Shown here piece by piece: positions 1-36,843 of a DNA stretch of 64,000 nucleotides. The notes under the pieces are model-generated. The model had not been told where the DNA came from. It saw only the letters and a program-made list of their open reading frames with translations, and did no database searches. Position 1 is the stretch's first letter. Each line of letters opens with the position of its first letter. Source of the DNA: a bacterium (GTDB lineage Bacteria; Margulisbacteria; Marinamargulisbacteria; SXXA01); assembly GCA_947465765.1 (NCBI GenBank), contig CANIAP010000004.1:25613-89612 (forward strand). Reading direction: 5' to 3'. The position numbers were made by a program, and so were the translations under genes.

Positions 1-1
1 C

Positions 2-205
2 GATCTGGCCGACAAAAACCACCCTGAAACTGACGACGAATCTGGGTTCGAAGACACCCCCGCTGCGGCCTGGCTCTTGGCCAATGCCCCCTCGCACGGG
101 TTTGAATTATCCTTCCCACAAGGCAACCGCCAAGGCGTCGGATATGAGCCGTGGCACTGGCGATTTTGTGGCGCCCCAACGGCTCGAAAGCGGTTTCACA
201 ATTAA
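2..205 (+). CDS. D-alanyl-D-alanine carboxypeptidase / peptidase M15 (VanY-like), C-terminal fragment; 5' end lies outside the window
   Basis: Frame 2 is open from the window edge to TAA 203-205. The translation ...SHGFELSFPQGNRQGVGYEPWHWRF... resembles the C-terminal zinc-peptidase block (EPWHWR-type) of VanY/M15B enzymes, recalled from memory. Confidence 0.55.
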   Translation, partial: DLADKNHPETDDESGFEDTPAAAWLLANAPSHGFELSFPQGNRQGVGYEPWHWRFCGAPTARKRFHN

Positions 206-268
206 GGACCAATCTGATACACTCTTACGACTTTATTGGTCGTGCCATTTTCTCAAAGGAGTGTCCAT

Positions 269-1450
269 TTGTCTTCTGACAGCTTAAAACAATTTGCAAA
301 TATTAAGGTCATGGGCGTGGGTGGTGGTGGCGGCAACGCAGTCAACCGTATGATAGGATCAGGAGTCCGTGGCGTCGAATTTTGTGTCATCAATACCGAT
401 ATTCAGTCACTGAATGTTTCCCTCGCTGAAAACAAGCTTCAGATCGGCACAAAACTAACCAAAGGATTGGGTGGCGGTGCCATACCAGCAGTCGGCGAAC
501 AAGCCGCGAAAGAAAGTAAAGAAGATATCGAAGCCGTATTACAAGGCGCGGACATGGTGTTTATCACCGCAGGGATGGGTGGCGGAACCGGAACCGGCGC
601 AGCCCCCGTTGTTGCAAAAATTGCAAAAGACTTAGGTGCGTTAACCATTGGCGTAGTCACCAAACCATTTCGGTTTGAAGGCCCTGTCCGTAACCGTCAG
701 GCCGACGAAGGATTAAAGCGACTACGGGAACAAGTCGACGCATTGATCGTGATTCCAAACGACAAATTGCTTCAGGTGGTCCAACGGATGACATCCATGT
801 TGGACGCGTTCAGAATCGCTGACGATGTATTGCGGCAAGGGGTGCAAGGAATTGCCGACTTAATCACCGTTCCTGGACTGATCAACTTGGACTTTGCCGA
901 CGTAAAAACAATCATGTTGAATTCAGGGTCTGCAATGATGGGCATCGGCCGAGCGAGCGGCGAAAATCGCGCCGTTGAAGCCGCCAACCAAGCCATTGCA
1001 TCCCCACTACTAGAAGAAACGATTCACGGCGCGACCGGTGTTATTCTAAACATTACCGGTGGCGAAGATTTGTCCTTACACGAAGTCCACAATGCGGCCG
1101 ATGTAATCTACGGCGCAGTGGACCCCGACGCCAATATCCTATTTGGATCGGTAATCGACGAAAACATGAAAGACTCCATCATGGTCACGGTCATCGCAAC
1201 TGGATTCCGTCGCCAAGCAACACCATTGAGCCGCGACGCAGACAATGCCGCGAGCACCCCCCCAATGGCCTCAGCTTCGGTAGACCTTTACAAAAACGAA
1301 GACGCCCCAGTCAGTGCCACGGATGCGCTTACGGTCTCTCCTGTGGAAGAAAAACGAGAAGAACGTAGCGGATCTTCGTTTTTCAAGTTCGATTCACGAG
1401 ATGAAGAGTACGATCTAGACGTCCCTTCATTCCTTCGAAACGTAAACTAA
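269..1450 (+). CDS. ftsZ: cell division GTPase FtsZ
   Basis: [17 protein letters not shown] and the tubulin signature [23 protein letters not shown]. The ORF opens at TTG 236. An in-frame TTG at 269 sits 7 nt after AGGAG (257-261) and gives a normal N-terminus ([14 protein letters not shown]), so I prefer 269. Confidence 0.93.
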
Positions 1451-10978: not shown

Positions 10979-11845
10979 CTAGCCCGGGATCTTTTGAATT
11001 AACGCTGACAAAATACGATTGACGTCATCAATGACCCCCTGGATGGCCGTAAATCCCCGATTGAGGAGCGCCATATCCAAAGCAACCTTGGCCACGTCGA
11101 TATTCGATGATTCCAATCGCTCTCCCAAAATTTCGCCATAGCTCCCTCCGCCCGCCACGTTCGGCGTCAAAGGCTCACCCGACGCAGCAGTTGCCATATA
11201 TGCAGCCCCTTCGCCAATGACCAGGCCTTGTTTGTTCGCGAATGACGTCAATGCAATACGATAGATCGGTACTTCAGGAGGAACATTCGTAGAGCCGGCA
11301 GAAATCGCATCTTTATTCGCTTGAAATCCACGCACCAAAACCCCGCCATCGATAAACCCAATATCGGTATTCCCGTCCGTTTGAATAGGGACCAATTCCC
11401 CAGATTCAGACTCACCCGCCGAATTCAATTTGTATCCATACACTTTCCTGCCAAACGCATCCGTCAAATATTTATTTCCAAAATCGACCTGAAATCTCCC
11501 CGACCGAGAAAACACTTTCGAGGACCCCCCTTCGAATTCCTGTGCGGACCGGGATAACATAAAAAATCCCTCCCCCACAATGGATGCATCCAAAGCTGTG
11601 CCAAAGCCAATGTTTCCTTGGCTAAAATCAGTTGTCGTCGAGCCTAATGTCATCGAACCGGCGATGGTTATCGGATTCTTAGTATCAGTACCCGCAGACA
11701 CCTTAGTGTTAAATACTGTGGTAAAGGATGCGTAAGTATACTTAAAGCCCGGAGTATTAAAGTTATCCGCATTGGAAATTCCAATACGTAGCGCCTGGGT
11801 TAATCCCCCAATTGAATTTTGAATATTTTTATATAAATCAAACAT
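10979..11845 (-). CDS. flagellar basal-body rod / hook family protein (FlgE/F/G-like), divergent
   Basis: These segments follow the block order of E. coli FlgG as I recall it: N-terminal GLTQALRIGISNADNFNTPGFKY; SQGNIGFGTALDASIVGEGFFML; FSRSGRFQVDFGNKYLTDAFGRKVYGY; IYRIALTSFANKQGLVIGEGAAYMAT; C-terminal LESSNIDVAKVALDMALLNRGFTAIQGVIDDVNRIL. GGGAGAAG SD upstream. Confidence 0.8.
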   Translation of the reverse strand: MFDLYKNIQNSIGGLTQALRIGISNADNFNTPGFKYTYASFTTVFNTKVSAGTDTKNPITIAGSMTLGSTTTDFSQGNIGFGTALDASIVGEGFFMLSRSAQEFEGGSSKVFSRSGRFQVDFGNKYLTDAFGRKVYGYKLNSAGESESGELVPIQTDGNTDIGFIDGGVLVRGFQANKDAISAGSTNVPPEVPIYRIALTSFANKQGLVIGEGAAYMATAASGEPLTPNVAGGGSYGEILGERLESSNIDVAKVALDMALLNRGFTAIQGVIDDVNRILSALIQKIPG

Positions 11846-11944
11846 CAGATTTCACTTCTCCCATCGTGTTAAGATCCCCCAACCATACAGGCATTACAGT
11901 TCAATCGGCTACTTTCGGTATAAATAATGTATCGAAAAAACACA

Positions 11945-13747
11945 CTATGCCGCCTCAACAATCGCACCATCCGAACTATCAACGGCTCGCCGCGATTGAT
12001 CGGGCTTCACGTCTTCGGCAATGGACGACTCTTTCCTCAATCGCTGCAATATCCCCAATAGTTGCTTTCGTTTCTGGGACAACGCTTTATTTGACGGTGC
12101 ATTTTCAAGTATCGCATCTATTTTTAGAAACTCTTCTTTTACCACAGAAAACATCCCTCGATTGATTTGATCCCGCATCCCATTAAATTCGTCTTTTGGA
12201 ACCGAGGCATTGAGTCGCTTTAATCCGCGCAGGGCCTTTTTAAGCTTGGCACGAAGCAAATCAAATGCGGGACCTTCCAAAGCCGGAAGCGCCGCCCGTT
12301 CCTCCAATGATTCCCGCAGCAAATCGATTAATTTAATCTTGGCCAACGCCTCGCCTTCACGCTCAATGTCCGACAACTCGATATCCGTGATGCCGCCTCC
12401 CTTTTTGAGCTTTCCTCGAAGCCGAGCAATTTTATAACGAACCTCGATCGAACCCAGAATGTCCGTACGAATGGCACGCTGAATCACCAATCGACGCAAC
12501 TGGTCCGTCATGACATCGGGATCCAATTCCAAGGATTGCGGCTGCCCACCGCGACCTTGGCCCCGCGCATCCGTATCCATTTGCCCCCGAGTAGCCTCCG
12601 GTGGAACAAAATGGGACAACCCCAAATTGTCCATTTTTTTACCCAGTTCCTTCATGTATGTTCCTGCATCAAATTTTACAACCGCCGCCAATTCGTTAAA
12701 CTTATTAAAGGCCGCGACAAGATCCTTAAACGGGGCCCCTTTTGTTTTTTCACGAATCAAGGTGTGATCCAATTCATCCGCCACAAATGCACCCAGCTCC
12801 CGCTTTGACTGATCTTTGAGCGACCTAAGATCCTCCTCATCCGCCAAAATTCCCGTATCCAACCCCATCTCTTCCAACACCTTATACTGCTTACTACTCG
12901 CCAACAGTTCTGGGGTCAGTTTGTCTGAATACGACAAGGCAAATTGGGCAAATCCCTTTTTTATCTTTTCCTTCAAGTCACACCGAACAAAAGACGACAC
13001 CCGTGACTGGACTTCGGATAAGCGCTTATTGGACACCCCATACATTTGCAACCGTTCCCGCAGTTCTGCAACCTCCTGCTTTTTCCCGGGGGATTGCTGA
13101 ATCAGATCTTCTGAAAAGGCCGAGACATACTGACGCATCGTCTCATGAATTCGAGCATCCCGATCCGCCGATTTTGTTCCTTCCGCCATCCCGGACTGCT
13201 GAAGCTGTCCACTCGATGCCGCTGGGGACATGGGCCGGGATCCATTACTCAGCCGCTTCTCGATTCGATCCAAAACAGTTTCATCCTGTGGGTCCTTGGA
13301 CCCCATCTCTTGAAAGACATCTTTCGCCTTTGATGACGCCCGTTTAATTTCGTCCTTATTAAACACAGCGGTCGATGCCGACAACACCACGGTATCGGAT
13401 GACTTGTCTTCAAATTCCTGTTTAAACAATTTTTCAACATCGGCATTCAACCGTGACTGCACCTGCTGGCGATATTCCACTTGCTCCTTAAAATGTTTTG
13501 ATCCCGCCAATTTTTCGGCAAAATTCTCCAAAATATCCTTAGGCTCAGTCATTTCATTGATCAGGGAAATTGAGGTGGGAGTAGTGGACTTGTTGGCCTT
13601 TGCCGTTTCGTCTTTATTGCCGCGCTGCCCGCCTCCGCCGCCTTTGCCACGTTTAAGCCCGTCTTTAAGATAATTTTTTAGCGAATCTGGTTTATCCGCC
13701 ATCTGGCTTCGACCTGGAACCGCCCCTACATTATGTGCACCTAGCAT
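11945..13747 (-). CDS. hypothetical protein, 600 aa, charged and helical, no signal peptide or TM helix
   Basis: Long ORF with a strong SD (GGAGGTG, 4 nt before ATG 13747). Low-complexity N-terminus (KRGKGGGGGQRGNKDE). No family recognised. Confidence 0.6.
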   Translation of the reverse strand: MLGAHNVGAVPGRSQMADKPDSLKNYLKDGLKRGKGGGGGQRGNKDETAKANKSTTPTSISLINEMTEPKDILENFAEKLAGSKHFKEQVEYRQQVQSRLNADVEKLFKQEFEDKSSDTVVLSASTAVFNKDEIKRASSKAKDVFQEMGSKDPQDETVLDRIEKRLSNGSRPMSPAASSGQLQQSGMAEGTKSADRDARIHETMRQYVSAFSEDLIQQSPGKKQEVAELRERLQMYGVSNKRLSEVQSRVSSFVRCDLKEKIKKGFAQFALSYSDKLTPELLASSKQYKVLEEMGLDTGILADEEDLRSLKDQSKRELGAFVADELDHTLIREKTKGAPFKDLVAAFNKFNELAAVVKFDAGTYMKELGKKMDNLGLSHFVPPEATRGQMDTDARGQGRGGQPQSLELDPDVMTDQLRRLVIQRAIRTDILGSIEVRYKIARLRGKLKKGGGITDIELSDIEREGEALAKIKLIDLLRESLEERAALPALEGPAFDLLRAKLKKALRGLKRLNASVPKDEFNGMRDQINRGMFSVVKEEFLKIDAILENAPSNKALSQKRKQLLGILQRLRKESSIAEDVKPDQSRRAVDSSDGAIVEAA

Positions 13748-13785
13748 TTAACACCTCCATCACAATCGTCCGCCCGCTGAGGCGA

Positions 13786-14043
13786 CTACGCTTCGCTGCC
13801 CTTTGCTTTATCAGGATCAATTAATTGAACCCCAATTGCCAACAGCTTCTCTTCTTCTTCACTCATTCGCACTAATTTATCCAACTGTTTATTGCGTTTC
13901 TTCAATCGCAGTTCTGCTCGCCCAATATACGCATCCAATTTCCGAATCTTCTGCCCCAGCTCAAAAATATTAATCTGAGGGTCAAAGTCTGACGACGGCG
14001 CCCCTTCTGGATTAGCCATTGAGTGACTTAAAATAAAATTCAT
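13786..14043 (-). CDS. hypothetical small coiled-coil protein (85 aa; 77 aa if it starts at ATG 14019)
   Basis: ORF in operon context. ATG 14019 overlaps the upstream stop by 8 nt (ATGGCTAA); ATG 14043 overlaps by 32 nt. Heptad-like segment KIRKLDAYIGRAELRLKKRNKQLDKLVRMSEEEEKLL. The start is uncertain. Confidence 0.45.
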   Translation of the reverse strand: MNFILSHSMANPEGAPSSDFDPQINIFELGQKIRKLDAYIGRAELRLKKRNKQLDKLVRMSEEEEKLLAIGVQLIDPDKAKGSEA

Positions 14044-14857
14044 ACTGATACATCAAATTCTCACGTTCCTTTTGAAACTCTTCCTTAATTCGTCGTACCT
14101 GACGCACTTGTTCTTCATAAATCCGGCGATCATTCCAATACTCTTTTTGACCCAGCGCGCTCATTTGCCCCATGAGCTGACGTTGAATTTCCTTAAACAT
14201 CTTTAAATTTCGCCGATTCTTTTTCCCATTTCCGTAGACCAACTCCGTTAATTCCATGCTGTAGATGCTCTCTTCCATCAACTGGACATTCTCCGCCACC
14301 GCATCTTCAATCGCTTTCATCTGGATCGCCGACAACTCTTGGGGTTCCACCCCGAGCAACCCAAGCAATCGTACCAACATCCCCACCTTAAATTCGGCAT
14401 ACTTTGACACAAAAAAATTGGACGACCGTGATTGCACCACACTCTGCATTAGCGATTGCTTCATCTGCCCCAGTCGATCATTTAAATCAATTTTGTATCC
14501 AATAGCTCCCACTGAATCCACGTGGCGACTTTTGATATCTACCGTTGTTGGAATCGACGGCTCGACCTGGGACGACAATTCAAAGTCCCCAGAATTCCCA
14601 CGCTCCCATCGAAATGATCGAATGCTCACGGAATCGTTAAACCCAAGCTTGGGTGAGAACGACTCACCAGCGGCGCTTTTTGTCACCGCCACAACGCGAT
14701 GCTGATCTTCCACCACATCACGCTCACCGGGATCTTGACGCGCCACCGTCTGTGCCACCCGACGATCTTTAATATCGCGCTGTAGCTTTTGATAATATTC
14801 ATTGCCAAGTATTTGAGATACCTGGTCCGATTCATTTGCGCCGACCTGCTGTGTCAC
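14012..14857 (-). CDS. hypothetical protein, 281 aa, no signal peptide or TM helix
   Basis: GTG start at 14857, 29 nt after the upstream stop. C-terminal third is charged and helical (RRIYEEQVRQVRRIKEEFQKERENLMYQYEF). No family recognised. Confidence 0.55.
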   Translation of the reverse strand: MTQQVGANESDQVSQILGNEYYQKLQRDIKDRRVAQTVARQDPGERDVVEDQHRVVAVTKSAAGESFSPKLGFNDSVSIRSFRWERGNSGDFELSSQVEPSIPTTVDIKSRHVDSVGAIGYKIDLNDRLGQMKQSLMQSVVQSRSSNFFVSKYAEFKVGMLVRLLGLLGVEPQELSAIQMKAIEDAVAENVQLMEESIYSMELTELVYGNGKKNRRNLKMFKEIQRQLMGQMSALGQKEYWNDRRIYEEQVRQVRRIKEEFQKERENLMYQYEFYFKSLNG

Positions 14858-14886
14858 AATTTCACCACCGTTACCGCAAAATCAAG

Positions 14887-17334
14887 CTACTTTTTCGAAC
14901 CCGCTCTCTCTTGAGATTCCCTACGTGCACGCTCTTCTTGCATCCGCTTATTTGCTTCGGCTTCCTGACGCATTCGCTCTTCCCTTGCGCGTTGAATTTG
15001 GAGTTGTTCGTCTTGGCGGCGTTGATTTTGAGACTCAATTTCCTTGATTACCCGTTGAATTTCACTCAACTGATAATCGTCCTTCGCTACCTCATAGTCG
15101 TCCTTCTTTTGACGATGTTGATTACGTTCCATTGAGTTGGTCGCATTCCGACCAAACATTGCTACCGCAACAGTATGAATAACTTTACCCTGTAATTTAT
15201 CCGCCACAGATTTCCATTCCGGGCTGTCAAACAGTTGTCGATCATAAAGGGAATCAATGGACAGCCGATAATTAGAACTCTTATCGGTAATCATATTAAC
15301 CGAATCAGTGGACCCCGAATTATCAACCAACATCCGAAAAGGAACCCCCCCTTCTTTTTTAACATCCGGACCGAATGTCCCAACCACTGGCTCTAACAAC
15401 GCCATCAATACCCGAATCTGATCTTTAAATGCAGATGCATCTTTTGGCGTATCAAACGTCATTGTTACGGGCCCCTGTTTCTGGATCCATCCCGACTTAT
15501 TATCCCATTCCTTCCAAGACCCGTCCGACGACACCGTCACTTTCAGACGAGAGCCCTCCGTTCTCGTCACCACTTTGCCATTCGAATCATTACTCTTATC
15601 GAGTCCCGTCATGATCGAATGCATATCAAACAACGTGTTATAGACCATCTGCGCATTCTTCACTTGATCGTAAGGGGTATTCACACCTCTCAACATATCA
15701 ATCAATTCAGGCAATGTTCTCATCGACCCGTCCGCTGCGGGCACGCGAATATCCGACCGCTTAAGCCCCCCCACCAATGTCTTATCCTGAATATCCAAAC
15801 TAAACGCGCCCACCGCCGACTGACGCAACACATCTCGAACCCGCTTCTTTTCGCCCTCACTAAAATTAATCGCCAAATTAAATTTAGGGTCCGAAGGATC
15901 AAATTTAGACGTTAACTTACCGGAAGCATCCAAATACCCCTTGTCCTTTAAATCATTAAAAATAGACTGTCCCAACTTGGGATTTTCTGCCCCAATCAGG
16001 GCTGGCGTCACCCGGCTATCTCCTTGGAATTTGTTGAACACATAATTCTTTGTCGCATAATTAAGATACCCGCTAATCATCTGGTTCTTAAACCCAAACG
16101 AATCCCCTTGTTTGTTCAATTGAATCCGACCTTCAATCTGGTCCGCCCAATTGCCCCAATCTTTCATGGTTTGCATTAATGGAGTAAACGACGCCAACAA
16201 TCCAAAAGGAAGGACTTCAGCCTCATTCAACCCTTTTCCCACATTGCTCCACCACCGATCCACATTGTCCATCATTTTGGTGGTTCGCTTTGAATTGTCC
16301 GCCATCAAATCTACTGCCGATTTCCCTGAAACGGAATCGGAATTGGACGAAATAGGCGCATCGGACGCCTTTCCAACGACTTCACGAAGAACGTCATCCA
16401 CCCGAGTAGATGCTTCCCATAATCGATTGACGAATGAAAACATTTTGGAATCATCCCAAGTCGTCCACAACTGAGAGCTGACTATCGTGTGGAAATTCGC
16501 AGTGATATCAAATGTTTTGGATTTATTATCACTATACGGATCTGCGACACCCTCCCAATTGAGTCCAAAGTGATTTTTCCCATAGGGGTTTTTAAATTTA
16601 TTGAGTTGATCAAGGGGCAATGTGGACACATTGGTTCCTTCAATCGAAGTGACACCATCGTTAATCATCGACCAAAATTTAGGGTCTAATTTTTCCAAAA
16701 TATTTCGAGGCGTCATCGACTGATCGTGCAACGCACTAAAATAGGGGCTTTTTTGAAACCGTTGATAGTTGACGGTATCTCCCTCCTTAATGGGATTCGA
16801 ACCGATCCCATGAAATAAATTCAAATTGTGAGGAGATGTCGATTCCTTCCCGACATCCTCTCCGATCAAGTCATAAAACTGTTGCGAATACAACTGGTCC
16901 TCGATGGTCTGGACATCCTTTGACTGAGTGTATTGAGGCTTTAAAACCCCGGGTAAATACATATAATCAGAATCTTTAACCCGTTCAAAATTAAAGGTTG
17001 AATTCAGCTGGTCCGCATTTGCCAAAATATCTTGAGGCAACATACTAAGCCCCTCGTAAATTTTGGATACTTGCCGCTGCCCCATAATTTGGCGGCCTTT
17101 TTTTTCATTGTAATTGGCGATTTCCCCCGGAGTCATCCCCGACTGTTGAAGGTTAAAACTTCGACCTAGCGTTGAATTCACCTGTTTCGAAACATCTTGA
17201 AAACTCTGCCCTTGGCTTACCCCGTAGTAATGAGATCCGTCCTCGACGTCCAACAATTTCCTTGCTCGAGGATCAACTTGAGGAGGAAGCATCGTCGGCT
17301 TAATTTTTTCCTGGAATGGGTCGATATCAAACAT
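14887..17334 (-). CDS. hypothetical protein, 815 aa, with an SLH-reminiscent motif and an E/R/Q-rich C-terminal tail; no signal peptide or TM helix
   Basis: Uninterrupted ORF with SD GGGAGAGGTG 4 nt before ATG 17334. Residues 458-480, IFNDLKDKGYLDASGKLTSKFDP, match residues 778-800 of the giant protein. The last ~85 aa are almost entirely E/R/Q/K. Confidence 0.7.
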   Translation of the reverse strand: MFDIDPFQEKIKPTMLPPQVDPRARKLLDVEDGSHYYGVSQGQSFQDVSKQVNSTLGRSFNLQQSGMTPGEIANYNEKKGRQIMGQRQVSKIYEGLSMLPQDILANADQLNSTFNFERVKDSDYMYLPGVLKPQYTQSKDVQTIEDQLYSQQFYDLIGEDVGKESTSPHNLNLFHGIGSNPIKEGDTVNYQRFQKSPYFSALHDQSMTPRNILEKLDPKFWSMINDGVTSIEGTNVSTLPLDQLNKFKNPYGKNHFGLNWEGVADPYSDNKSKTFDITANFHTIVSSQLWTTWDDSKMFSFVNRLWEASTRVDDVLREVVGKASDAPISSNSDSVSGKSAVDLMADNSKRTTKMMDNVDRWWSNVGKGLNEAEVLPFGLLASFTPLMQTMKDWGNWADQIEGRIQLNKQGDSFGFKNQMISGYLNYATKNYVFNKFQGDSRVTPALIGAENPKLGQSIFNDLKDKGYLDASGKLTSKFDPSDPKFNLAINFSEGEKKRVRDVLRQSAVGAFSLDIQDKTLVGGLKRSDIRVPAADGSMRTLPELIDMLRGVNTPYDQVKNAQMVYNTLFDMHSIMTGLDKSNDSNGKVVTRTEGSRLKVTVSSDGSWKEWDNKSGWIQKQGPVTMTFDTPKDASAFKDQIRVLMALLEPVVGTFGPDVKKEGGVPFRMLVDNSGSTDSVNMITDKSSNYRLSIDSLYDRQLFDSPEWKSVADKLQGKVIHTVAVAMFGRNATNSMERNQHRQKKDDYEVAKDDYQLSEIQRVIKEIESQNQRRQDEQLQIQRAREERMRQEAEANKRMQEERARRESQERAGSKK

Positions 17335-17347
17335 GTAACACCTCTCC

Positions 17348-17674
17348 CTATTGTAATCCCCAAAGCTTCTTCTCGTTACCTAATCCTAATTTCGAAAGAC
17401 CACTCATGGATTCCTTACTTGTTTCCAAGGTTTCCATATAAATCTGAATCGCCAACAATCCCCCTGTGGAATCCAACGACGCGAGCTGACCCGTCTGCAG
17501 CCTCACTTTACCGCTATTAATTAATGAGCTTTGAACACGGGACATTTCATCATAAAAATCGCGCTGGGCCCGATACTCTCCATAAGGAAAATCATAAATC
17601 GTACTTACTTTATGCAGGTTAACCAGCGCCACCAACGACCGCCCCGCAAGCTCAAATTCCTGTAAAGCTACCAT
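17348..17674 (-). CDS. hypothetical small protein (108 aa), paralogue of the adjacent 112-aa gene
   Basis: AAGGAG 7 nt before the ATG. Shares YDFPYGEYRAQRDFYDEMSRVQ and LLAIQIYMETLETSKES with the upstream paralogue. Confidence 0.6.
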   Translation of the reverse strand: MVALQEFELAGRSLVALVNLHKVSTIYDFPYGEYRAQRDFYDEMSRVQSSLINSGKVRLQTGQLASLDSTGGLLAIQIYMETLETSKESMSGLSKLGLGNEKKLWGLQ

Positions 17675-17688
17675 AATTAGGCTCCTTT

Positions 17689-18027
17689 CTACTGACTATA
17701 CAAATTAGTCAGAGAACTATATTCCACTTTAAGACCTTTTCGCCCCAACCCAAGAACGCCCTCTTTGGCCCCTTCTAAACTCGACATATAGGTTTGCAAG
17801 GCCAACATATCGCCCGGCTTTTCCATCGACCAGATTTTGCCATTAACCTCGATTTCCTTGCCCGAAACAACGTCCTGCTGAATACGACTCAATTCAGAAT
17901 AAAAGCCGCGAGAGTAGAGATAATTGCCATACGCAAAATCATACCGAGGGGACGAAACATTTCCAGTCCCATAAAGGGCTAGAGTCCCTTGCTCTAACGA
18001 AATCTTAACGCCGCCTAAATCAGCCAT
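17689..18027 (-). CDS. hypothetical small protein (112 aa), paralogue of the adjacent 108-aa gene
   Basis: GAGG 8 nt before the ATG. YDFAYGNYLYSRGFYSELSRIQ and MLALQTYMSSLEGAKEG align with the downstream paralogue. Confidence 0.6.
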   Translation of the reverse strand: MADLGGVKISLEQGTLALYGTGNVSSPRYDFAYGNYLYSRGFYSELSRIQQDVVSGKEIEVNGKIWSMEKPGDMLALQTYMSSLEGAKEGVLGLGRKGLKVEYSSLTNLYSQ

Positions 18028-18046
18028 ACCACTCGCCTCTTTTCAG

Positions 18047-18075
18047 TATATAAAATCGAGGTTCAAATCTACCAA
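18047..18075 (-). promoter_or_regulatory. candidate sigma70-type promoter for the 112-aa gene and the operon behind it
   Basis: On the minus strand, TTGGTA (18075-18070), a 17-nt spacer, then TATATA (18052-18047). It lies between the 88-aa gene terminator and ATG 18027. The predicted leader would be very short, which lowers confidence. Confidence 0.3.
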
Positions 18076-18104
18076 CGCCCACGTCAGCACAATTGAACCG
18101 CGAG

Positions 18105-18141
18105 AAAAAAAAACCCCGCCACCGGGATCGGTGGCGGGGTT
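18105..18141 (-). terminator. strong rho-independent terminator of the 88-aa gene
   Basis: Minus-strand transcript: AACCCCGCCACC-gauccc-GGUGGCGGGGUU followed by U9. Perfect 10-bp GC-rich stem (18114-18123 / 18130-18139), 6-nt loop, starting 6 nt after stop 18147-18149. Confidence 0.85.
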
Positions 18142-18146
18142 GATCA

Positions 18147-18413
18147 CTAACCTGCCGCTTGCTTAACTGCTTGAGCTGCTGTTTTAACTGCTTTTGAAAC
18201 GTTGTTCGGAAGACCTTGCTTGACTTGGTACATTGTTTCCGCTTCAGTAATTTCTAACTGAGACTTAACCATTGTTCCTAGTGAAGTACCGGTGGAAGCG
18301 GCACCCGAATCAATCGTATCACGAATCTTTGTCATATCAGCGGTGTAATCGTTCCCCGCCGCTTGTGCTGCGGAAGTCCGGTCTGCTGAGGTTTCTAACT
18401 TTAGTGCTGCCAT
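18147..18413 (-). CDS. hypothetical 88-aa Ala/Thr/Gln-rich helical-hairpin protein (monocistronic)
   Basis: AAGGAG 8 nt before the ATG, and a dedicated terminator. No Cys, Trp, His or Phe, and one Pro. Two predicted helices flank a Gly/Ser/Thr turn (DSGAASTGTSLG). Confidence 0.65.
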   Translation of the reverse strand: MAALKLETSADRTSAAQAAGNDYTADMTKIRDTIDSGAASTGTSLGTMVKSQLEITEAETMYQVKQGLPNNVSKAVKTAAQAVKQAAG

Positions 18414-18466
18414 TTTATTTGCTCCTTTTAAATACGTCTTTCATATCCCGCTATCGAGGATTTCAA

Positions 18467-18478
18467 AGAGAGGTATTG
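18467..18478. promoter_or_regulatory. perfect 12-bp palindrome in the dapF / 88-aa-gene divergent intergenic region (possible operator)
   Basis: TGTATCGATACA is its own reverse complement. It lies 54-65 nt upstream of ATG 18413. Function is unknown. Confidence 0.25.
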
Positions 18479-18680
18479 TATCGATACATTGTGTTTTATG
18501 CCGAACCCAACCTCCTTTCACCGGGGCCGTGAGCCGAATTGGCATATTTCCACAAAGATACCGATTTCAAAGACCTCTTGCACGTTTTGTGCTGGATAGT
18601 ATTTTCCATCATTTCAATCCATTAAAACATCGAAGTTTTTAAATTTAAAAGAGAGACCAAAACACCTTATCCTAGGCCCA

Positions 18681-21779: not shown

Positions 21780-24700
21780 CTATTTGAGAGACCCTGCCAT
21801 TTTCAATTTTAATACGGCAATTTTATTCGCCCTGGCCTTGACCTTTGCCATCAAGTCTTTTTCTAACTCAGAGGTTTCTTCACGGTAGCCTGCGACCGAC
21901 ACCTTAATTGTCCCCAGAGTCGCCATCTGTTGTGCCGCCATCCGTTGTCTGAAGGGGAACCCGATCAAGGCCTTCACTTTTTTAACATCCGCTGACCGAG
22001 ACGACTCCCACGCCTGCCCAATTATGGAATCAGGAAGCGCTGCATTGACCGACGATATCGCCATCGCAGTCCCATCCGACCGCCCGGATGGAACCAAATA
22101 ATCACCGGCATTTACGGGGCCAATGACCTTGACAGGGACTTGGCCCATAAACGAAGTCAGTGCCATTTGGTCTAGACGATCCGCCTGCCAGTTCCCGGCT
22201 ACGACCGGCGCAGAACTAATCACCAACAACTTATGCCGACCGCTCGTTTGAAAGGACACCTTCCCAGTATCTACACTGACAACATCCCCAGGTTGAAACG
22301 AATCCGAGGCAACAAGCTTATCCACATACTCGGCGTAATCCGCCTCAGGGGAGGTGAACTGAACCCCACCGGACCCATCTCCTTCAATCGAACCAATGAC
22401 CTCCGGATCGTAGGTAGGATAGGCGGGATTACCGAACCGATCCTTATTGTTGGCGATAAAGGATACAAAATTAGAGTTAGTCGAATTTCCGAGATTTCTT
22501 ACCGCCACACCGTAAAGAGGATGGCTGATTGCGTTGCCCGTGACGGTCACCAGTACGGTGTGGTTACCTGTGGCATGAGCTGTTCCTGACGGATTACTTG
22601 TCGACACTACATGTAACGCCGCCTCAGGATTCGCAGTACCAATACCCACCCCGCCTTGAAGGGTATAAGTCACTTTACCCGCTTGAATAGCAAATGGATC
22701 ATCCGCCAGCTGGGTCCGTAGATTTTCAGGCGCAATATAGCCAGTCACTGCAACTGAGAAATTCGCCGTAATGCCTCCTTGGGTTACGCTTGGTTGAGTA
22801 TAACCCACCAACAATCGTGCATTGGGCTCCGCAGTATTCCCTTCCCCAACCGCCATACGCAATTCGCTCCAGCCACCAGACCCTGTGTCACCGTAGATGT
22901 TGTACCGCCCAATATACATCGGATCTTTATTATCACTGTCGATAGTACTCACAAACGTAGGTCCACCCGACAAATACACCCGAGAACCCCATCCTTCGGT
23001 TCCGGCAAACACTGAATTGGTAATAACCCCCAAGCGAACATCCCCACTGACATACAAGGCGTCATTCACAAGCACCGAACTCGTAGCCACCCCATTGTAG
23101 TAGGCACCGACAACGACCATGCCACTTGTGCTAGTCTTAGCCGACGTATTGGCGCTTACCTCCAACATCACTATCCCATACGTTTTTGTGGCGACCCCAT
23201 TACCATAATCCACTCTCAACTCGTACCCGGGCCTTGTATACTCTTTGAATGCGAGAACTGAGGGGGTACTCATGGCAAGTGCTACCCTATTAGACGAGGT
23301 AGATGGGTTCGCATACCGAGCGACAAACCGAATGACATCCGCAGACGCCACGTTCGTCGTTACCCCACGATAATCCATCGCCTGTATCAGCAGTGCCGCA
23401 GCGGTTGCAGATTTTGCATCGTCCGTGGACCCAATTGCAACTTGTCCACCGGTAAATAGCGCGGGATATTTCAAGCCTCCTTTGGACCCGCCGGGCGTAA
23501 TCGGATCGAATATATTCATCGAAGCTACATCGACGTTCACCCCAACCACATAACGTTTAATACCAGGAGCACCGACAGTCCCACCCGCCGAAGAGGTGAC
23601 GCCCAACGACATCCCAATAACGTTAAGGGGGAAATCGGCGTCAATCGTTAAATAATTCCGCTGAAGCTTCGCCTTGGTCGCGGATACACTTCCAGGCGCA
23701 GTCTGAGTCAACGTGAGCACCGGACGCCTCGCAGTCGTGTCGTTATCCGTCGCAACCAACTGATTGGTACTTACCGACGCTGCAACCAAACTGCCATAAT
23801 TCCCGTTGGATGAGGATATCCGAGCATTGCCGCTCACGACAAGAGCAAGAGTAGAATTAGAGGTGCCGATACCCACCCCAGCAGAATTCACGATAAAATA
23901 GGAGGGCCCACTCACCACTTTCAGAATCGGATCCGTACTTCCCGAGATGGTCAGTAACGCATCTGAAGTAACCGTTCCGATCGATACCCTATTTTGATAA
24001 AGCTGCATGTCAACCACGCCATTTTCGATAAACGAGACAGAGGACGTCGGAACGTTGAGCCAACTCAAAACACTGTCGGCCGACTGGCCATTCGTGGTGA
24101 CACCCACAAATAGATACCTATTTTCGGTCACCGCTAAAATTCCTGGTGAAAACGTCGCAGCCGTAGCGTTGTACAATGTCGGTGTAAGGGTACCTGGAAT
24201 GGTGACGCTACCAGTTCCCGCCCTCAACGCAACCCTCGCGAAGAATCCCGCATTCGTTGTCGTGCCGTATACACCTGCCTCGCCATTTCTAGAGACAATC
24301 AATACATTATTAACGCTGGCCACCAGAAATGGGAAGGTCGGTGACGCGACAGGCGGATTAAACGAGACGTCTAACGCGTACACGGGTGAAATCGTCCGAA
24401 TACCCACTCGCCCCGCCGAATCCACAAGGAATTTAGAATCAACGCCAAGGGCCGCGTTATCCGAAGTGATCTGCATTGCAAAACTTGATCCATCGCCGAG
24501 TATATGGAGCGTGGCTGACGGAACGTCCGTACCAATCCCTACCCTATTTTGACTGGATATCGACATAATATTACGGTTTGAACTGTCTTTAATATCTAAA
24601 ATCCCACCCGCCGAACTCGCTAACGCTTTAACGTGCAACGCCGCACTGGCCGGTGGCGTTCCAATAGACACTCTTGCGTCAGACGTGCCCACTACCAACA

Positions 24701-27700
24701 CATCCGATATCGAGCTCGAACCACCAACGGCAAACTTAACCGATTTAGATTTATCTCGAGGAGCAAAGTTACCCGCCGCTTGCGAGTTTGGGTTTTGACC
24801 CAGAGAATGGGCGGTACCACTATACAGATCGGATACATGGAGCACCGCGTTTGGATTAGCGGTGACGTAACTACTCCCAAAGTCCTTCAAAAATATCCCG
24901 ACGTTCCCTGTAGAATCTCCCGCGTTATCGACTAAGAATATAGCCGCCGCCTTTTGACCGAGAATTGAGAAATCCGACCCAAGGGGTAACTCTGTTGAGT
25001 TTTTTGCATATATTTTTGTCAAATCCACCCGAAGCCCAACGGCGATATCTTCTACACCCGCCTGTACCCTGGCGACATTGCCTGATGGAAACACAATCGA
25101 CATCCCTCCAAAATCATCCGTTGAGCCATTAGTCCGAGCACCAAAGTCCATTTTAATGAGTTCCCCAGTGAAAGACCCGTTGGTAGTTCCTATGTTGGAG
25201 GACACCGTCAAAACACGTTGGCCTACACCACTCGACGGATTATACGAGGTGGCAATTGCGTTGACTGACACGACCCTAACCAACCCGTTAACCGTCCAAT
25301 TTAATCCATTTGGAGATGACGTCAGCTGCGAGTCCGAACCGTAATACGGAAAAACATTCCCCGTGCCGGACATCGCCCGCGTGATATTGAGAGACACGGT
25401 TGGGCCCCCATTGTAGACGTACAGCAAGTCAAAAGAGGCCGTTTTCGCTACCGAAAGGACGCCATACCCAGACTTAAACGCCCCAATGCTTGCCGATGCA
25501 ATCAGCAGTGTCGACGCGGTCATATTCCCGGTCACGTTCACCGTCGGAGCCGTGAACCTAACCGTGGGCATTACCAAAACAAGGTCAGAATGTAATTCAT
25601 TGGTTGAAACCTGATTATTGGTAGAAATTGAACCATCAACCCACAAATTCCCCCCAATCGTCACAAGCCCATTACCCGACACCGCCAACGAATAAGAGCT
25701 ATTCACAGTCGCACTGCCAATTGCAATCCGATTCGCAGTAACCAGAGTTGCGATCAAATCGGACGTCACATTCAACGTTGCTGCTGGAGCCAGAACTTGC
25801 AGATTAATCGTTACCCCATTACCCGACCTGAACTGAAGGGTATTGGAAACGTTAATCTCTGGCCCAGCCGCTATATTATCAACAAATAACAACCCATTAA
25901 TACTCACGCCCTTGACCGATCCGGAGGCAACCAAACCATTTACCGTCACTCCATCAAGATCAAAATCCGCACTAGCCACCCATAAATTATTACCCGCCAA
26001 GGCGCCGGAAATATCTAGCACGGACGTCGGTAAGGTCGTCCCAATCCCGACGTTTCCCCCATTCAAAATCAGAGAGTTGGCACTGACATTCGTCGTCGGA
26101 GATATATAGATCCCAGTCAATACCCCATTGGACCCCAACGCCAATCCGCTTCCATCCACATTCATCCCCACCGCCGCGACACTCGCTCCGGTACCCCCAA
26201 AGGTCGCCAACGCTGCCGATGTAGCAACAAATTCCACGGCCGTTATATTTCCTGTTACCGACCCCGTCGTGTTTATACTCACGGTTTCCATCGTAAACGC
26301 CGCAGTTAAATTACCTGGCCTCAAAAACGATCGGCTCAATTCTAATTGCGCAGCAGGCGCCGTCGTTCCAATTCCGACATTACCTTCGGCCGTAACCACC
26401 AAGCCCCCATTACTTCCACTAATATCGATTGTCTTTGGAACAATTCCACCCGTTGCTTTCAACGTGGTCGCTTTTCCTTGTCCATTTACCCACAACCCGC
26501 TACTTGGCGCCGTCGTTCCCCCAATGACTACCCCTCGATTAGGGCCGACTATTATCCCAGCCCCGCCACTATTGTAGATTCCTAATGTATCCGTTGTGCC
26601 ATCTATCCCGTTCACTACCAACCGGGACGTCCCCATATTTACCGAACTGCCCACTCCCACCGATCCGTTGTTCGACACAATCAACAAATCCCTAAGCACA
26701 CTATTGACCGTACTTTGTACAACAAAGTCGCCGCGTCCGTTTACCGTCACTACCGTCGCGATATACAAATCCGCCAAACCTCTGATCGGGATATTCGGAC
26801 TCGTTACGATCACCACGTTCCCACTCGTCTGTTTTCCGCTCATAAACACCGCAGGTATCATACTTCCCGTTATTTTTTCTCCAAATCGATTCGTTACACT
26901 GCTTGATACGCCAGCAAACTCAACGATCACGCCCGCGGCGATATCGCCGGCACTCGTACTCAATTTATCCAGGCTATTTCCCATTTTCACTGACATTGCA
27001 TTAATCGTTGTCGCATTACTTGCACTTCTTGCGCCTACTTCAAGATCTACTGCATATACTGTCGTTCCACTCGCGGATATCGTCGGGATTTGTGTCATTG
27101 TCTTTAATATCGCCGATCCGCTCACTCTTTCCAGTGATGAAGCTGTACTACCCACTCTCAGCATCCCAATAGTGTTGTTAACCGTCACATCCATATACGC
27201 ATCCGAAGACAATTGTCTCGACGTATTAAAATACCCCATCCGATTCCCTGAACCGACCAATGTATTACTAATATTAGCCGTAACGCTCGCCACTCTGTTT
27301 ACATATATTAAATTGTTTTGACTTGCACTATCGACATACAAAAATGAGTCCATTGTCGGGGTCGCACTCGGCGCCGCGGTCGGTTTTAAACCCAACGTTT
27401 TCGCAGCCCACGCACCACTACTCACCACACGTCGATTCGTGGTTACAGCGCCGACAATATTGAGCTGACCCGACACACTAATCGTATTAACGGTCACTGC
27501 GCCGTTGATCGTTACAGCGTTCACAACCGCGGATCCGCTCACGATTAACGCGTTAGCGGTCCCCCCACTCCACAAATTCATATCCGCATTAAACGTCGGA
27601 ATCACCAATCGGTTAAACGTCGCTACCACCGACGACAAATCACCCACCGTTATGATCGGATACATTAAACTCCCCGGAATACTATTTACCAAATCGGCGC

Positions 27701-30700
27701 TAATCACCAACGTATTTACGGTAACGAGACCTCTATTCTCCAGCACGTCCATTACACCATCGCCACTCACAAACATTCGATTTGCCGTTACTTCTCCGAT
27801 CGACCAGTCAATTGGTGTCGTTAAGATGACGTTCCCACCACCCAGTGTTCCGCCCACTTCCAACGCCGCCTGTGGACTCGATATCCCAATCCCGACTCCG
27901 CCTCCCATAAATAGAGCGGACTTCATCTGGTTGTTTGAGGTGGCGACAGCAACCTTCACTCCATACAACACAGAATTTGAATGGAGATTAAGTCCAGACA
28001 AATCAATATTCAATCCAGACACCTTAACTGGCGTTCCAGCCTGACCAAAATTTCCCCCCGAATTCGATGTAACGACAATTTGAAGTCCGATTGAATCCAA
28101 CGGCACGTCACCCCCAAAATCACCCAAAGCTGTTTCGAAACGTGACGACATTAAAGAATAAGGGGCCGTCAAATCCGACGGCAAATTAAATGATTTTTTC
28201 AAATGATGCTGAGCAACAGGAACTGATGTCCCCATACCTACGTATCCATTGGATAGAACAACAAACAAATTGGAGGTCGTGATTCCGATGGTATCCGATG
28301 TCAGAAGACCGTTAATACTAGCGATTGCTGCATTTAGAGTCCCCACAACTTGAAGTTTGACACTCGGCTTAGATGTCCCTATTCCCACATTATCCGCCGG
28401 ATCGATATCAAAAAGTGGCAAGAGTTGCGCCGACATCACACTAACTCTTCGGTCTCCAGGTCGAGGCTCAATAGAAAGTGGGGCTACAGGCGATTCCGAA
28501 TTAATACCCACGTCCCCATTTCTACTCACGATTAGCTCATTATAAGTAGCGCCATCTGAATCGAGAATAGTAACCCGAAGAGCCGCCTGTCTTTCTTTGT
28601 TCAAAATATACATGTCGCCAACATTTGGAAGAGAGGCCAGCGAACTACTTGTCGCTACAATAAGAACATTTGAGCTGGAAGCGCCCGCAGTAAACACCGC
28701 CGCCATCTTGCGTCCGGTAATCACTTGCCCTGAGGGGGAATAAGTCAATGTTTTCAAGTCCGACGACACCCCCACCGATACGCCGACTACAACATCCTGA
28801 GCTGACACACCTGAAGTTGAAACCATCAATACATCGATACCCACAAACGTCGTCGACGACCCAGTAGTACGAGCCCCTAGTTCAACAGAGACGCCTTCTG
28901 CAGACACCGAGCTTTGAGGAGTAGTACTAGACACCCCGGATACCACCTGAAACATCTGTGTACCTGGAACAAATCCAAACGCACCAGTCTGCCCCATGGA
29001 CAATACATTTTGGGTTCCGGCACCCACTATCGAATCCCATTTTGCAAACAACGTCCCATTCAACACATTTTTTTCACTAAAAAAAGGAATCGACGGACTT
29101 GGTACCACTTCCCTCCTGCCGAAATTAGCGACCAAACTGGAACCATCTTGAAACGTCGCCAAATTAATATTGCCTGACGCGTTAGAAAATAATGAAAAAT
29201 TACCGGACGTCACGTTAAATGCCGCGATGGGTTTCATTGATAACTGCCGCAAGATCGCAATCCCGGAAAGACTCATTGTAGGCTGAACGTTGGTCGTCAC
29301 TTCAAAAGCAACAGACGTACCCACGACACTCGAGGTCAATAGCGCATTTGCGGATACCCGACCTGAAACCAGTAGCCCGCCATTTATAGCTAATCGGCCA
29401 TCCGGAATCGAGGTCCCTATCCCAAGATCCCCGTTACTCGTCAGCCGCATCCGCTCCATTGGCAATCCAGTGTCAGGATCCGTGATAAACAAAAGATGAT
29501 GAGACCGCTCTCGCTCCATACCACCGGAAACATCAACATCCCCCAACGCGACAACACCAGATCCGATGTTTTCTCCAAGTGATGTATCAGGAACCAATAA
29601 TACCCCCACCCCAACCCCGGCAACCGATGATGGATTTTGTGCAACGACGCCATTCCAAGTCTGGAATAAACTGGCGTCAAACCTATTGCCAGGGTTGGGA
29701 TCCTGGCCGTCGAACATTACCTGCAAAGGGGTCAGCGGATTTGAAACATTAACCCCAACACGCCCATTGCCCCCCACAACGAGATTAGAGGTATTCACTA
29801 CCAAAAGACCTGTATAGACGGCCCGATTTACCGTCACCGCCCCAACAATCATCCCGCCCACCACACCCAATGGATTGCTCCCGCCCAATTGTCCTACTCC
29901 GAGCGTATTAAACGTCGCCGTATTGATAGTAGAAATGCCAATGGACACCATATCCACACTTTTAATCATATTCACCGAGACTGTATTAAGTATCGCCTCA
30001 CCAGATACATTTAGCGTAGTCGTCCCCAACTCAATGGCATTTAATGCGATGAGGTTATCCAACCGCACATCATTCGTTACAACCATCGCAGCAGCGATAA
30101 CATCATTTAAAACCAATAAGCCCCTGGGAACAATCAATCGATTAAACGAAGCCACGTTAATCTGCTGCAAGAAGTTGGCTGAAGGTGCATCTGTACCAAA
30201 GATCGTTCCCTTAACCTCTAACGGCGAAGTAGGGTTGGAAACACCAATTCCGACGTTTCCCCCGATAAATACAGTCGCATTGCGAGATGACCTCGAGTCA
30301 GATACTTTGACATCAATACCGACTGCAGTTCCGGTAGGAGTCAACGCCAACCCCGTTAAATTCAATCTAATACCATAGCCTTTTGCCGCAACGGTGTCTG
30401 ACCCCAGTCGATTACCAAAGGTTGTGGAGCCAGAATTCACCGCATTCAACGTAATTCCAACCCCAGTTACCGGAACCACCACAGGTCCGTTATTGCCAGT
30501 CGATATAATTTCAACGTTATAAAAAGAATAAGGTCCCACAATAGGATCCCCAAATTGGCGATACAAATCAAACAAGGCAACGGGTGTCGACAAACCGACG
30601 CCCACCAATCCAGTATTCGTTACAACGAGCCCGCCGGAGGTAGTATTCAAAAACTGCGCAATGACCCCTCGGGATGAACGGGCACCAACACTTGAAATGG

Positions 30701-35126: not shown

Positions 35127-35149
35127 CTGACTCCTCACTCAACAAATGA

Positions 35150-36079
35150 TCAAAAATTAAGCGCAAGGGAAAAATAGTGGATACCACTATACTCGGGATG
35201 ATCACTATGTTCATACGCATAATCAAATTGATTTCCGAAAACATCAATTCCAAGCCCCATCGAAACTTTACCCCTAATTGCGCTCAAAACAGGAAACTCC
35301 TTGTAGCCCCCTGACACACGGATAAATGGAATGAAGGACGGAGTATAAATGAGGGCAGCGCTTTTAGCCAGCCTCTTTGAGCTCCCTAGAATCTTAATTT
35401 GCCCCATCACATCCACATCGCCAATCGCAAACCGGGTACCGACTATCGTCTCTAGCGGCAAATTTTCAGTCATCCCATTGGAGTATTGAACCTTTAAACC
35501 TGTCGCAACATTCCTAAGCAATAACGAAACCCCGACACCATCAGCGTCGTACAACACCCCCGCATCAAAATTAACGCCTGTCCCCGTCACGGAATCAATG
35601 ACTGTACTATAATAAGTGGCCGCAACCCCCAGATGAATCCGCTCGGATTGCGAAATAGAATATCCAATTTTATACACTGACTTTGTTAAAGAAAACGAGC
35701 CATCCTCCACCAACCGCTCCAAAGTTGACCCCGCATTAACAAGGCGCGCCCTTGGAATATCTGCAACGCCCACCGTATTAAACCCAATTCCAAAACTCCC
35801 CATGGCAGTCGACATCCCCACCGCGCCGTTGGTGTAAGGAACCTCTCCCATCAAATTAGTAGAAAATAATGAGAGAGATGACGATTGAATACGAAACAAC
35901 GCCGCGGGATTCTCAAATACGCTGTCCCCATTAGAAGAAAAACCCTCAATCCCGCCAACCCGAATACCACGGGCAGAAGATCCGATTTCAGTCCCCATAA
36001 AATAGTCCGCATCCGCAAACACAGAACCGCTCACCATCATGACGCAAACCACAACCCATAATCCGAAGAAAGTTTTCAT
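35150..36079 (-). CDS. outer-membrane beta-barrel protein (PorV / UPF0164 / PorP-SprF-like)
   Basis: Signal peptide MKTFFGLWVVVCVMMVSGSVFA|DA, an ENPAAL motif near the N-terminus, alternating-hydrophobic strands throughout, and a C-terminal ...YFSLALNF ending in Phe (beta-signal). The start overlaps the upstream stop (ATGA). Confidence 0.7.
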   Translation of the reverse strand: MKTFFGLWVVVCVMMVSGSVFADADYFMGTEIGSSARGIRVGGIEGFSSNGDSVFENPAALFRIQSSSLSLFSTNLMGEVPYTNGAVGMSTAMGSFGIGFNTVGVADIPRARLVNAGSTLERLVEDGSFSLTKSVYKIGYSISQSERIHLGVAATYYSTVIDSVTGTGVNFDAGVLYDADGVGVSLLLRNVATGLKVQYSNGMTENLPLETIVGTRFAIGDVDVMGQIKILGSSKRLAKSAALIYTPSFIPFIRVSGGYKEFPVLSAIRGKVSMGLGIDVFGNQFDYAYEHSDHPEYSGIHYFSLALNF

Positions 36080-36702: not shown

Positions 36703-36803
36703 TGATTTCCCCCAAAGCCGAAGCTTGGCCTCCCTGGATAGTCTGTGCGGGCTTGGAACACCACGCTCTAACAGGCCCTGTATCGTAGAACCTTTATAAA
36801 AAC

Positions 36804-36831: not shown

Positions 36832-36843
36832 CCATCCCTCAAG

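Follow-up and report, generated by a model that had tools for sequence, protein, structure and literature searches.

The window analysed in this work is a stretch of 64,000 nucleotides from a bacterium of the Marinamargulisbacteria (contig CANIAP010000004.1, assembly GCA_947465765.1). Between positions 10979 and 18413, its minus strand carries a set of eight genes, the last of which encodes a protein related to the flagellar rod and hook proteins FlgE, FlgF and FlgG. An earlier interpretation made from the DNA letters alone, called here the sequence-only reading, had listed these eight open reading frames (ORFs), and an ORF check of the window reproduced all coordinates and lengths. The products are designated by family. 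In the order of transcription, the set starts with F88 (18147-18413), a small Ala/Thr-rich and Cys-free protein of 88 residues that is a candidate for a major, high-copy subunit. Two members of the family F110 follow. One has 112 residues (17689-18027) and arose by a duplication confined to the freshwater sub-lineage; the other has 108 residues (17348-17674) and represents the conserved ancestral type. Then come the 815-residue orphan protein F815 (14887-17334), the 281-residue orphan F281 (14012-14857), whose C-terminal half is rich in coiled-coil, the 77-residue helical protein F77 (13786-14019) and the 600-residue basic protein F600 (11945-13747). The set ends with F288 (10979-11845), a minimal axial protein of the FlgE/F/G family with domains D0-Dc-D1 and no D2.

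The AAGGAG Shine-Dalgarno sequence and the terminator that had been assigned to the F88 gene are both real. The Shine-Dalgarno sequence is strong and reads AAAAGGAG. The intrinsic terminator or attenuator, located 3′ of F88 at positions 18103-18141 of the minus strand, consists of a 13-bp stem with 10 G-C pairs followed by T9. After F88, the genes are spaced by 13-38 nt or overlap, with the exception of the 99 nt that precede F288. For F77, two lengths had been considered. Orthologue starts and public gene calls favour the start at 14019, giving 77 residues and an overlap of 8 nt with F281, and the longer 85-residue reading (13786-14043) is less likely. An internal promoter, TTGGTA-N17-TATATA, had also been proposed. 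Its letters are present but fail the criteria of a sigma-70 scan; it was judged uninformative and dropped. The GC content of the cluster (0.44-0.48) is only slightly lower than that of its flanks (0.47-0.52), and the remainder of the window is occupied by housekeeping genes (ftsZ, aconitase, radA, clpC, dapF, transketolase, prfA, mreB, glyQS, pyrG and others).

The 288-residue product had been placed in the FlgE/F/G rod/hook family, and profile searches bear this out. The protein matched the model TIGR03506 (FlgEFG_subfam) over residues 27-140 with 90.2 bits, above the curated cut-off of 70.25, and a profile of 39 sequences of the family matched solved FlgE and FlgG structures at 5e-28 to 1e-14. 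On the N-terminal side, profile positions 12-153 aligned with Campylobacter FlgE (5jxl, 70 bits), which places this part with the D0/Dc domains, and the rod motif ISNADNFNTPGFKY (..SNN.aN.nT.GyK..) was nearly invariant in the 39 sequences. On the C-terminal side, positions 189-284 matched the C-termini of FlgE with 36 bits and also matched FlgG, as for D1/D0 domains; by BLAST, residues 174-284 were covered by E. coli FlgE/FlgG. Alignment with E. coli FlgG ran from end to end with 25% identity over 273 residues. No FlgE_D2 match was found in F288 with Pfam or NCBIfam. The alignments with FlgG and FlgF covered the full length of the protein, whereas that with FlgE was limited to the termini. Because the D2 domain is missing, the architecture is of the rod type. 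Judged by these alignments, F288 is a genuine rod/hook-type axial protein of the FlgE/F/G family. To our knowledge, every characterised member of this family is cargo of the flagellar type III secretion system (fT3SS).

Like FlgG, FlgF and FlgE (TIGR03506; Flg_bb_rod, LlgE_F_G_D1, Flg_bbr_C), F288 has no cysteine, and it aligns over the full FlgG length. It differs from them in three respects. It forms a separate clade; the Pfam models of the terminal domains stay below cut-off in the window protein (no match to Flg_bb_rod, and 15.8 bits for a cut-off of 23 with Flg_bbr_C); and it is never encoded beside flgB/C/D/F/G/K or fliK, its neighbours being the seven orphan families or housekeeping genes. 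The clade comprises about 115 clusters, nearly all of 282-293 residues, that are 44-91% identical to the window protein. Its edge is sharp, since even the weakest fragment within the clade scores about 127 bits, as against 62 bits for the closest canonical FlgG/FlgE. The few named members are labelled 'Candidatus Margulisiibacteriota' or 'Marinamargulisbacteria'. Within the eight-gene set F288 is the best-conserved protein, with 75% identity between the window and locus L002 as against 40-46% for F815, F281 and F600, and its termini are very strongly conserved.

Related loci came from look-ups of exact proteins and from two scans, one over species-representative genomes and one over metagenomes, and their ORFs were searched with iterated hidden Markov models. 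About 50 loci were covered in this way, amounting to ~0.7 Mb. The order F88-F110 (one or two copies)-F815-F281-F77-F600-F288 was kept in more than 25 independent metagenomic loci, and it reaches as far as L014, where F288 is only 44% identical. The flanking genes vary from locus to locus, and the few named records with the set are Margulisbacteria. The varied flanks argue for a lineage-wide, vertically conserved module rather than a horizontally acquired island. The description of the cluster as an island is therefore misleading, as its GC content is near that of its flanks and the same module occurs in many genomic contexts. In the searchable literature on Margulisbacteria with flagella, type III secretion systems (T3SS) or motility, no mention of the module was found.

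Comparison of the loci also informs on the individual members. The 112- and 108-residue proteins are paralogues, and marine loci have a single F110 of the 108-residue type. F281 is fused to F77 in L003 and L012, which indicates that the two proteins work together. Wherever F600 and F288 are linked, F600 lies immediately upstream of F288. F288 is also found apart from the module, after an alternative complex III (ACIII)/cytochrome oxidase operon in L019, L022 and L058 and before clpC-radA in L024, L026 and L027; reciprocally, the module occurs with no adjacent F288 in L003, L009 and L010. In L005 (3310-5479), three F88 paralogues are present, two of them on the opposite strand.

A bipartite promoter-like motif of the general form TTCGATACA-N19±1-CGAT(a/t) is located upstream of F88 and of F288. 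In the window, both instances read TCGATACA-N20-CGAT on the minus strand, at 18453-18484 before F88 and at 11904-11935 before F288, where the downstream half is GCCGAT. These are the only two exact matches to TCGATACA-N18-21-CGAT in the 64-kb window, for 0.03 expected. Compilation of 33 instances gave the consensus AAAtTTCgATACAtt-N19±1-CGAT(a/t). In its relaxed form, the motif was found upstream of F88 in 15/20 loci and upstream of F288 in 18 of the 21 loci with an intergenic region, stand-alone F288 genes included, whereas 0.019 would be expected per region in either case. F88 upstream regions from loci that could not otherwise be aligned have this bipartite element in common, and each of the three F88 copies of L005 is preceded by its own TTCGATACA-N19/20-CGAT. 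Over all loci and the window, 36 of the 46 matches to the strict motif were directly upstream of F88 or F288. Matches before other ORFs, mostly within coding sequence, were dismissed as chance. Because the motif accompanies F88 and F288 even when the two genes are far apart, they form, as far as their upstream regions tell, one regulon that is co-regulated via this motif.

Promoters of sigma-28 (FliA) have the form TAAA-N15-GCCGATAA. The downstream half of the module motif, CGAT(a/t) in all 33 compiled instances and GCCGAT in some, resembles the -10 element of these promoters. The analysis of the window and of the related loci identified no sigma factor gene. At positions 18475-18486 of the window, the upstream half of the F88 motif lies inside a perfect 12-bp palindrome, TGTATCGATACA, which could be an operator for a dimeric regulator; it is present in the window and in the closest relative and is not general across the loci. 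On the 3′ side of F88, a stable hairpin is found in most freshwater-type loci, conserved in position and not in sequence. This conservation fits with F88 being made in excess over the downstream genes.

F815 is linked to large surface proteins by a domain of ~55 residues. The sequence-only reading had noticed a motif common to F815 and to a giant surface protein, and this motif is real. In F815, the domain covers approximately residues 455-505 (15820-15972, minus strand; ...FNDLKDKGYLDASGKLTSKFDP...) and matches residues 776-826 of a 4452-residue protein. It follows the pattern ..[WF]n[ED]L..kGY[LI]D..G.[IL]t.KF.P... and has no Pfam model. Elsewhere, we found it in a TPS-domain exoprotein with seven copies, in an SLT-domain protein with two copies and in a hook cap protein FlgD (P0309, P0317, P0318). 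This FlgD is encoded inside a canonical fla operon (L055/L056, described below), and there the domain replaces the usual C-terminal domains.

The giant protein itself (21780-36849, minus strand) has a signal-peptide-like N-terminus, 0.04% cysteine and many VGIGT-type repeats. Two genes precede it, encoding proteins of 257 residues, with a weak Por_Secre_tail match, and of 309 residues. Homologues of both are present in L058 (10915-14410), together with a 672-residue repeat protein, directly after F288, so that the module and the giant-protein operon recur as loose neighbours. In the marine loci L021, L031, L037, L038, L042-L044 and L051, the left end carries on the minus strand a gene for a large (at least 1000 residues) signal-peptide protein as the divergent neighbour of the module, and a 7055-residue gene occupies the same divergent position in the P0122 locus. 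No relation was detectable between these marine neighbours and the giant protein of the window.

The seven partners of F288 gave no match to any known family. No hit was obtained with Pfam or NCBIfam at E<=1, and profiles of five of the orphan families found nothing among PDB sequences. Profile searches gave no significant match to flagellin, FlgK, FlgL, FliD, FliK, FlgD, FliS, FlgN, FlgM, FliE, FlgB or FlgC, and alignment of the F88, F110, F815, F281 and F600 profiles with E. coli flagellar proteins by hhalign gave probabilities below 3%, these templates being single sequences with low sensitivity. The absence of resemblance to known flagellar export substrates and chaperones, reported from the letters alone, holds in the Pfam, NCBIfam, PDB and hhalign searches. 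A phage or defence origin found no support either. PHROGs and PADLOC scans of all eight proteins matched none of the seven orphans, and F815 had no significant fold match in BFVD. An exhaustive HMMER profile search for F815 among 1.84 billion representatives returned only ~94 clusters at 50% identity, with no annotated distant relatives except via the ~55-residue domain.

AlphaFold models were considered for two of the orphans. That of F815 had a predicted local distance difference test score (pLDDT) of 63.9. Its N-terminal ~283 residues are conserved, yet they are not confidently folded; the middle forms an alpha/beta region, and the C-terminus is a charged helix of ~108 residues. Foldseek found no fold match for this model in PDB or BFVD. 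In the model of the 108-residue F110 (pLDDT 71.9), the N-terminus is disordered and is followed by a helix (29-53), a beta-hairpin and a second helix (70-107); Foldseek found no significant neighbour of this model, the best E being 2.5. For F600, alignment distinguishes an N-terminal part of ~200 residues, poorly conserved and of low complexity, from a conserved C-terminal part of ~400 residues. The extreme C-terminus of F600 (11945-11960) reads (I/V)(V/I)E(A/S)A in all ten aligned orthologues, which points to a tag that may be recognised, for instance, by a protease, a chaperone or an export switch.

The small size of F88 and F110 (~90-110 residues), their lack of signal peptides and their tandem paralogues bring to mind WXG100/Esx proteins. 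According to this explanation, a type VII-like pathway would export F88 and the two F110 proteins as its helical-hairpin substrates, with the large proteins as their partners. The best fold matches of the 108-residue model were indeed EsxOP and EsxB, though at non-significant E-values of 2.5-9. However, when the F88 and F110 families were searched member by member (31 sequences) against Pfam, no WXG100 family was matched even at E<=10, nor any flagellar, T3SS, T3SS_needle_F or Sct family, and an FtsK/EssC-type ATPase was encoded in none of the loci. The linkage and co-regulation with an FlgE/F/G protein would moreover be left unexplained. We consider a type VII-like system highly improbable.

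Some traits of the eight proteins would be compatible with export through a T3SS. The sequence-only reading had seen no Sec or Tat signal and no transmembrane (TM) helix in the seven orphans. In none of the eight proteins did a 19-residue stretch reach the hydrophobicity needed for a TM helix or for the core of a signal peptide, the highest Kyte-Doolittle mean being 1.29. Cysteine is absent from the F88 family (0 in 2320 residues) and very rare in F110 (0.09%), F815 (0.05%) and F288 (0.05%), as compared to 0.90% in the other proteins of the window. For reference, all 14 E. coli substrates of flagellar export together contain no cysteine in 4135 residues. The N-termini of F815 and of the 108-residue F110 have low pLDDT values. 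The lack of signals, the low cysteine content and these N-termini are compatible with T3SS export substrates without being specific to them.

In order to find type III components, all related loci and the window were scanned with E. coli flagellar proteins. In the window, only the 288-residue gene was matched, consistent with the earlier statement that no export gate, ATPase, ring, motor or sigma-28 gene is encoded there. Among the related loci, FliI was found twice. In L019 (10848-15229, minus strand), where F288 is 65% identical to that of the window, a fliH-fliI-fliJ operon is convergent with F288 and reaches as far as the stop codon of that gene. The assignments rest on PF02108 for FliH (77 bits), on the T3SS_ATPase_C domain and 47% identity to E. 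coli FliI for FliI, and on PF02050 for FliJ (36 bits). In L040, a single contig of 11.8 kb carries the module and, upstream of it at a distance of 2.8 kb, fliI-fliJ (1-1167, plus strand). The proximity of these genes to F288 or to the module indicates that these lineages keep the T3SS ATPase complex. We know of no role of the FliH/FliI/FliJ complex outside type III export. The 566-residue gene that follows fliJ in L019 was considered as an F600 relative and rejected; its product is a polytopic membrane protein that by eye resembles a PMT/ArnT-type glycosyltransferase.

Two further loci encode flagellum-related domains. In L009 (1369-2865, identical to L059 10001-11497), 7 kb from the module, a 498-residue protein combines a signal or TM segment at the N-terminus and a further TM segment with FliG_M/FliG_C domains at the C-terminus. 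It is encoded after two genes for KaiC-like ATPases, one with a receiver domain, and a TPR gene. From aquifer metagenomes, L055/L056 contain a complete canonical fla operon, with flgB, flgC, fliF, fliG, fliH, fliI, fliJ, an SLT gene, fliK, flgD, flgE, fliL, a FliM/N-type gene (FliMN_C), fliO, fliP, fliQ, fliR, flhB and flhA. The FliI of this operon is 62% identical to that of L019.

The last result bears on an explanation in which the genome would be that of an otherwise canonical flagellated bacterium. The module would then be a lineage-specific accessory set (rod/hook-associated, sheath, collar or regulatory proteins), with F288 as one of several FlgE/F/G paralogues. The closeness of the L055/L056 and L019 FliI proteins agrees with it, as do the F815-type domain in the FlgD of the canonical operon and the ordinary flagellar type of the relatives' FliH/I/J. 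Homologues of flagellin and FlgV have also been reported in some Margulisbacteria (PMC7018530, PMC11607428). On the other hand, neither the window nor any of about 50 related loci showed a canonical axial or filament gene. The sigma-28-like motif is placed on F288 and F88 and not on any canonical gene, and the expression architecture of F88 suits a major subunit better than an accessory factor. We regard an accessory set as unlikely.

It may also be asked whether any link to type III export persists. F288 could be a relic that was exapted as a self-assembling tube or scaffold, with partners that build an unrelated structure, either cytoplasmic or otherwise exported and perhaps tied to the nearby giant surface proteins. 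Several of the above observations go in this direction: neither the window nor ~0.7 Mb of related loci showed an export gate, no homology ties the orphans to T3SS components, large signal-peptide proteins recur beside the module, and the F815 domain is also found in Sec/TPS-type exoproteins. Such an exaptation is nevertheless quite unlikely in our view, given the established role of all characterised FlgE/F/G members as fT3SS cargo, the persistence of FliH/I/J adjoining F288 or the module, the lack of signal peptides in the module proteins and the very strong conservation of the F288 termini.

We give an even chance to the reading in which the proteins of the module are axial and accessory parts, exported by a type III system, of a highly divergent apparatus derived from the flagellum. 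A set of secreted structural proteins for a divergent apparatus had already been proposed from the letters of the window. The conserved synteny, the shared motif, the Cys-free families and the nearby FliH/I/J genes speak for that proposal; the export gate, unseen in ~0.7 Mb, and the lack of an axial fold for F815 and F110 do not.

Several observations weigh against an axial apparatus of this kind. No gene for FlhA, FlhB, FliPQR, the MS/C-ring, the stator, flagellin or sigma-28 was found in the window or in the ~0.7 Mb of related loci. The FliG-domain protein of L009 was not counted as a FliF-FliG fusion or as evidence of a rotor because of its operon partners, namely KaiC-like ATPases, a receiver domain and a TPR protein. 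None of the orphan families has sequence or profile likeness to an axial protein, needle, cap, ruler or chaperone, and the F815 and F110 models show no fold likeness to these. The models of F815 and F110 are only moderately confident, and these two proteins could not be tied by modelling to an axial-protein fold. In L003, L009, L010, L019 and L022, the module and F288 are not linked. The upstream half of the promoter-like motif, TTCGATACA, is not the TAAA of sigma-28 promoters, and its spacing of 19±1, counted from ATACA to CGAT, is 2-3 nt longer than in these promoters. Finally, three families are only partly depleted in cysteine (F600 0.20%, F281 0.36%, F77 0.63%), and cysteine depletion suits any extracellular protein. 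This trait is merely suggestive since the Sec-type giant protein, with its 0.04%, is equally depleted.

If the module does belong to a flagellum-derived apparatus, a T3SS basal body encoded elsewhere would export its proteins. F288 would polymerise via its D0/D1 helices into a short rod- or hook-like tube. F88 would be the major subunit of the distal part, in the form of a needle-like protein or of a filament protein that has been drastically reduced, because it is small and helical, occurs in one to three copies and has its own strong Shine-Dalgarno sequence and a downstream attenuator that would raise its stoichiometry. With its disordered N-terminus followed by a helical hairpin, F110 may be a minor axial or adaptor protein, or a substrate-specific chaperone. 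F815, which carries the domain also present in the FlgD hook cap and in giant exoproteins, would be a large distal, cap or tip component. F600 might act as a secreted ruler or switch, or as a cap, as it occupies the position of FliK and resembles FliK in layout, its N-terminus being variable and of low complexity and its C-terminus conserved. The least Cys-depleted families, F281 and F77, which are fused in some genomes, could be a cytoplasmic pair acting as chaperone or regulator.

The arrangement recalls that of late flagellar operons, such as Bacillus flgM-flgN-flgK-flgL or fliK-flgD-flgE as in L055. The gene order is small, small, large, medium, ruler-sized and hook-type; the promoter-like motif of the module includes a -10-like element of the CGAT(A) type that recalls sigma-28 promoters; and a small, highly expressed first gene is followed by a terminator. 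In contrast to these operons, only F288 is homologous, and both the upstream half TTCGATACA and the spacing of the promoter are off the sigma-28 consensus. Injectisomes offer a second comparison. F88 (88 residues) and F110 (~105-115 residues) have the size and helical-hairpin character of needle (SctF) and inner-rod (SctI) proteins and no signal peptide, and the trio of 88, 112 and 108 residues is similar in size to YscF/YscE/YscG, the needle protein with its chaperones (SctE/SctG). However, F88 and F110 show no T3SS_needle_F or Sct match at E<=10, and the relatives encode ATPase partners of the flagellar type, FliH and FliJ. Injectisomes, as far as we know, have no FlgE/F/G homologue. A third comparison is with the orphan flagellar genes of non-motile bacteria, such as chlamydial FliI/FlhA/FliF. 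The units of Margulisbacteria are likewise small and scattered among housekeeping genes, with no single regulon. They differ in that the module keeps a strongly conserved axial (exported) protein, a dedicated multi-gene set and its own promoter type.

An extended form of the flagellum-derived reading would be that pelagic and host-associated Margulisbacteria remodelled the ancestral flagellum into a new kind of type III nanomachine, keeping the FliH/I/J engine and one minimal rod protein, with all other axial parts replaced by non-homologous proteins. A needle/injectisome-like or adhesive organelle would then have arisen a second time, separately from the known injectisome, which we hold to be unlikely. 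The parts of such a machine would be the 88-residue needle-like major subunit, the helical-hairpin adaptor and the distal proteins of ~800 and ~600 residues, possibly acting with the neighbouring giant surface proteins. Few bacterial protein families are as easy to recognise as the flagellar axial proteins. A lineage that has a T3SS ATPase complex and only one minimal rod/hook protein, set among seven conserved orphan families, would possess either the most divergent of known flagella or a new machine derived from the flagellum, an event on a par with the origin of the injectisome. Should the canonical axial genes really be missing, the module would stand for a newly derived type III machine. 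In any event, the eight families, the motif of a small regulon and the candidate major subunit provide handles on an uncultured phylum with symbiotic and planktonic members, and a new domain of ~55 residues is defined that is common to a hook cap, to giant adhesin-like proteins and to F815.

Additional observations were made around the module and in the window. On a Margulisiibacteriota contig (L057, 11256-14721, minus strand), the module is followed on the same strand by orphans of 806 and 118 residues, a CheY-like receiver and an Hpt protein; the last two hint at phosphorelay control. Rfam and tRNA scans of the window were empty. At positions 51929-52843 of the plus strand, the window encodes a 304-residue protein with a C-terminal match to an OTU-like cysteine protease (31 bits, above cut-off). 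Bacterial OTU deubiquitinase-like domains are typical of effectors acting on eukaryotic hosts.

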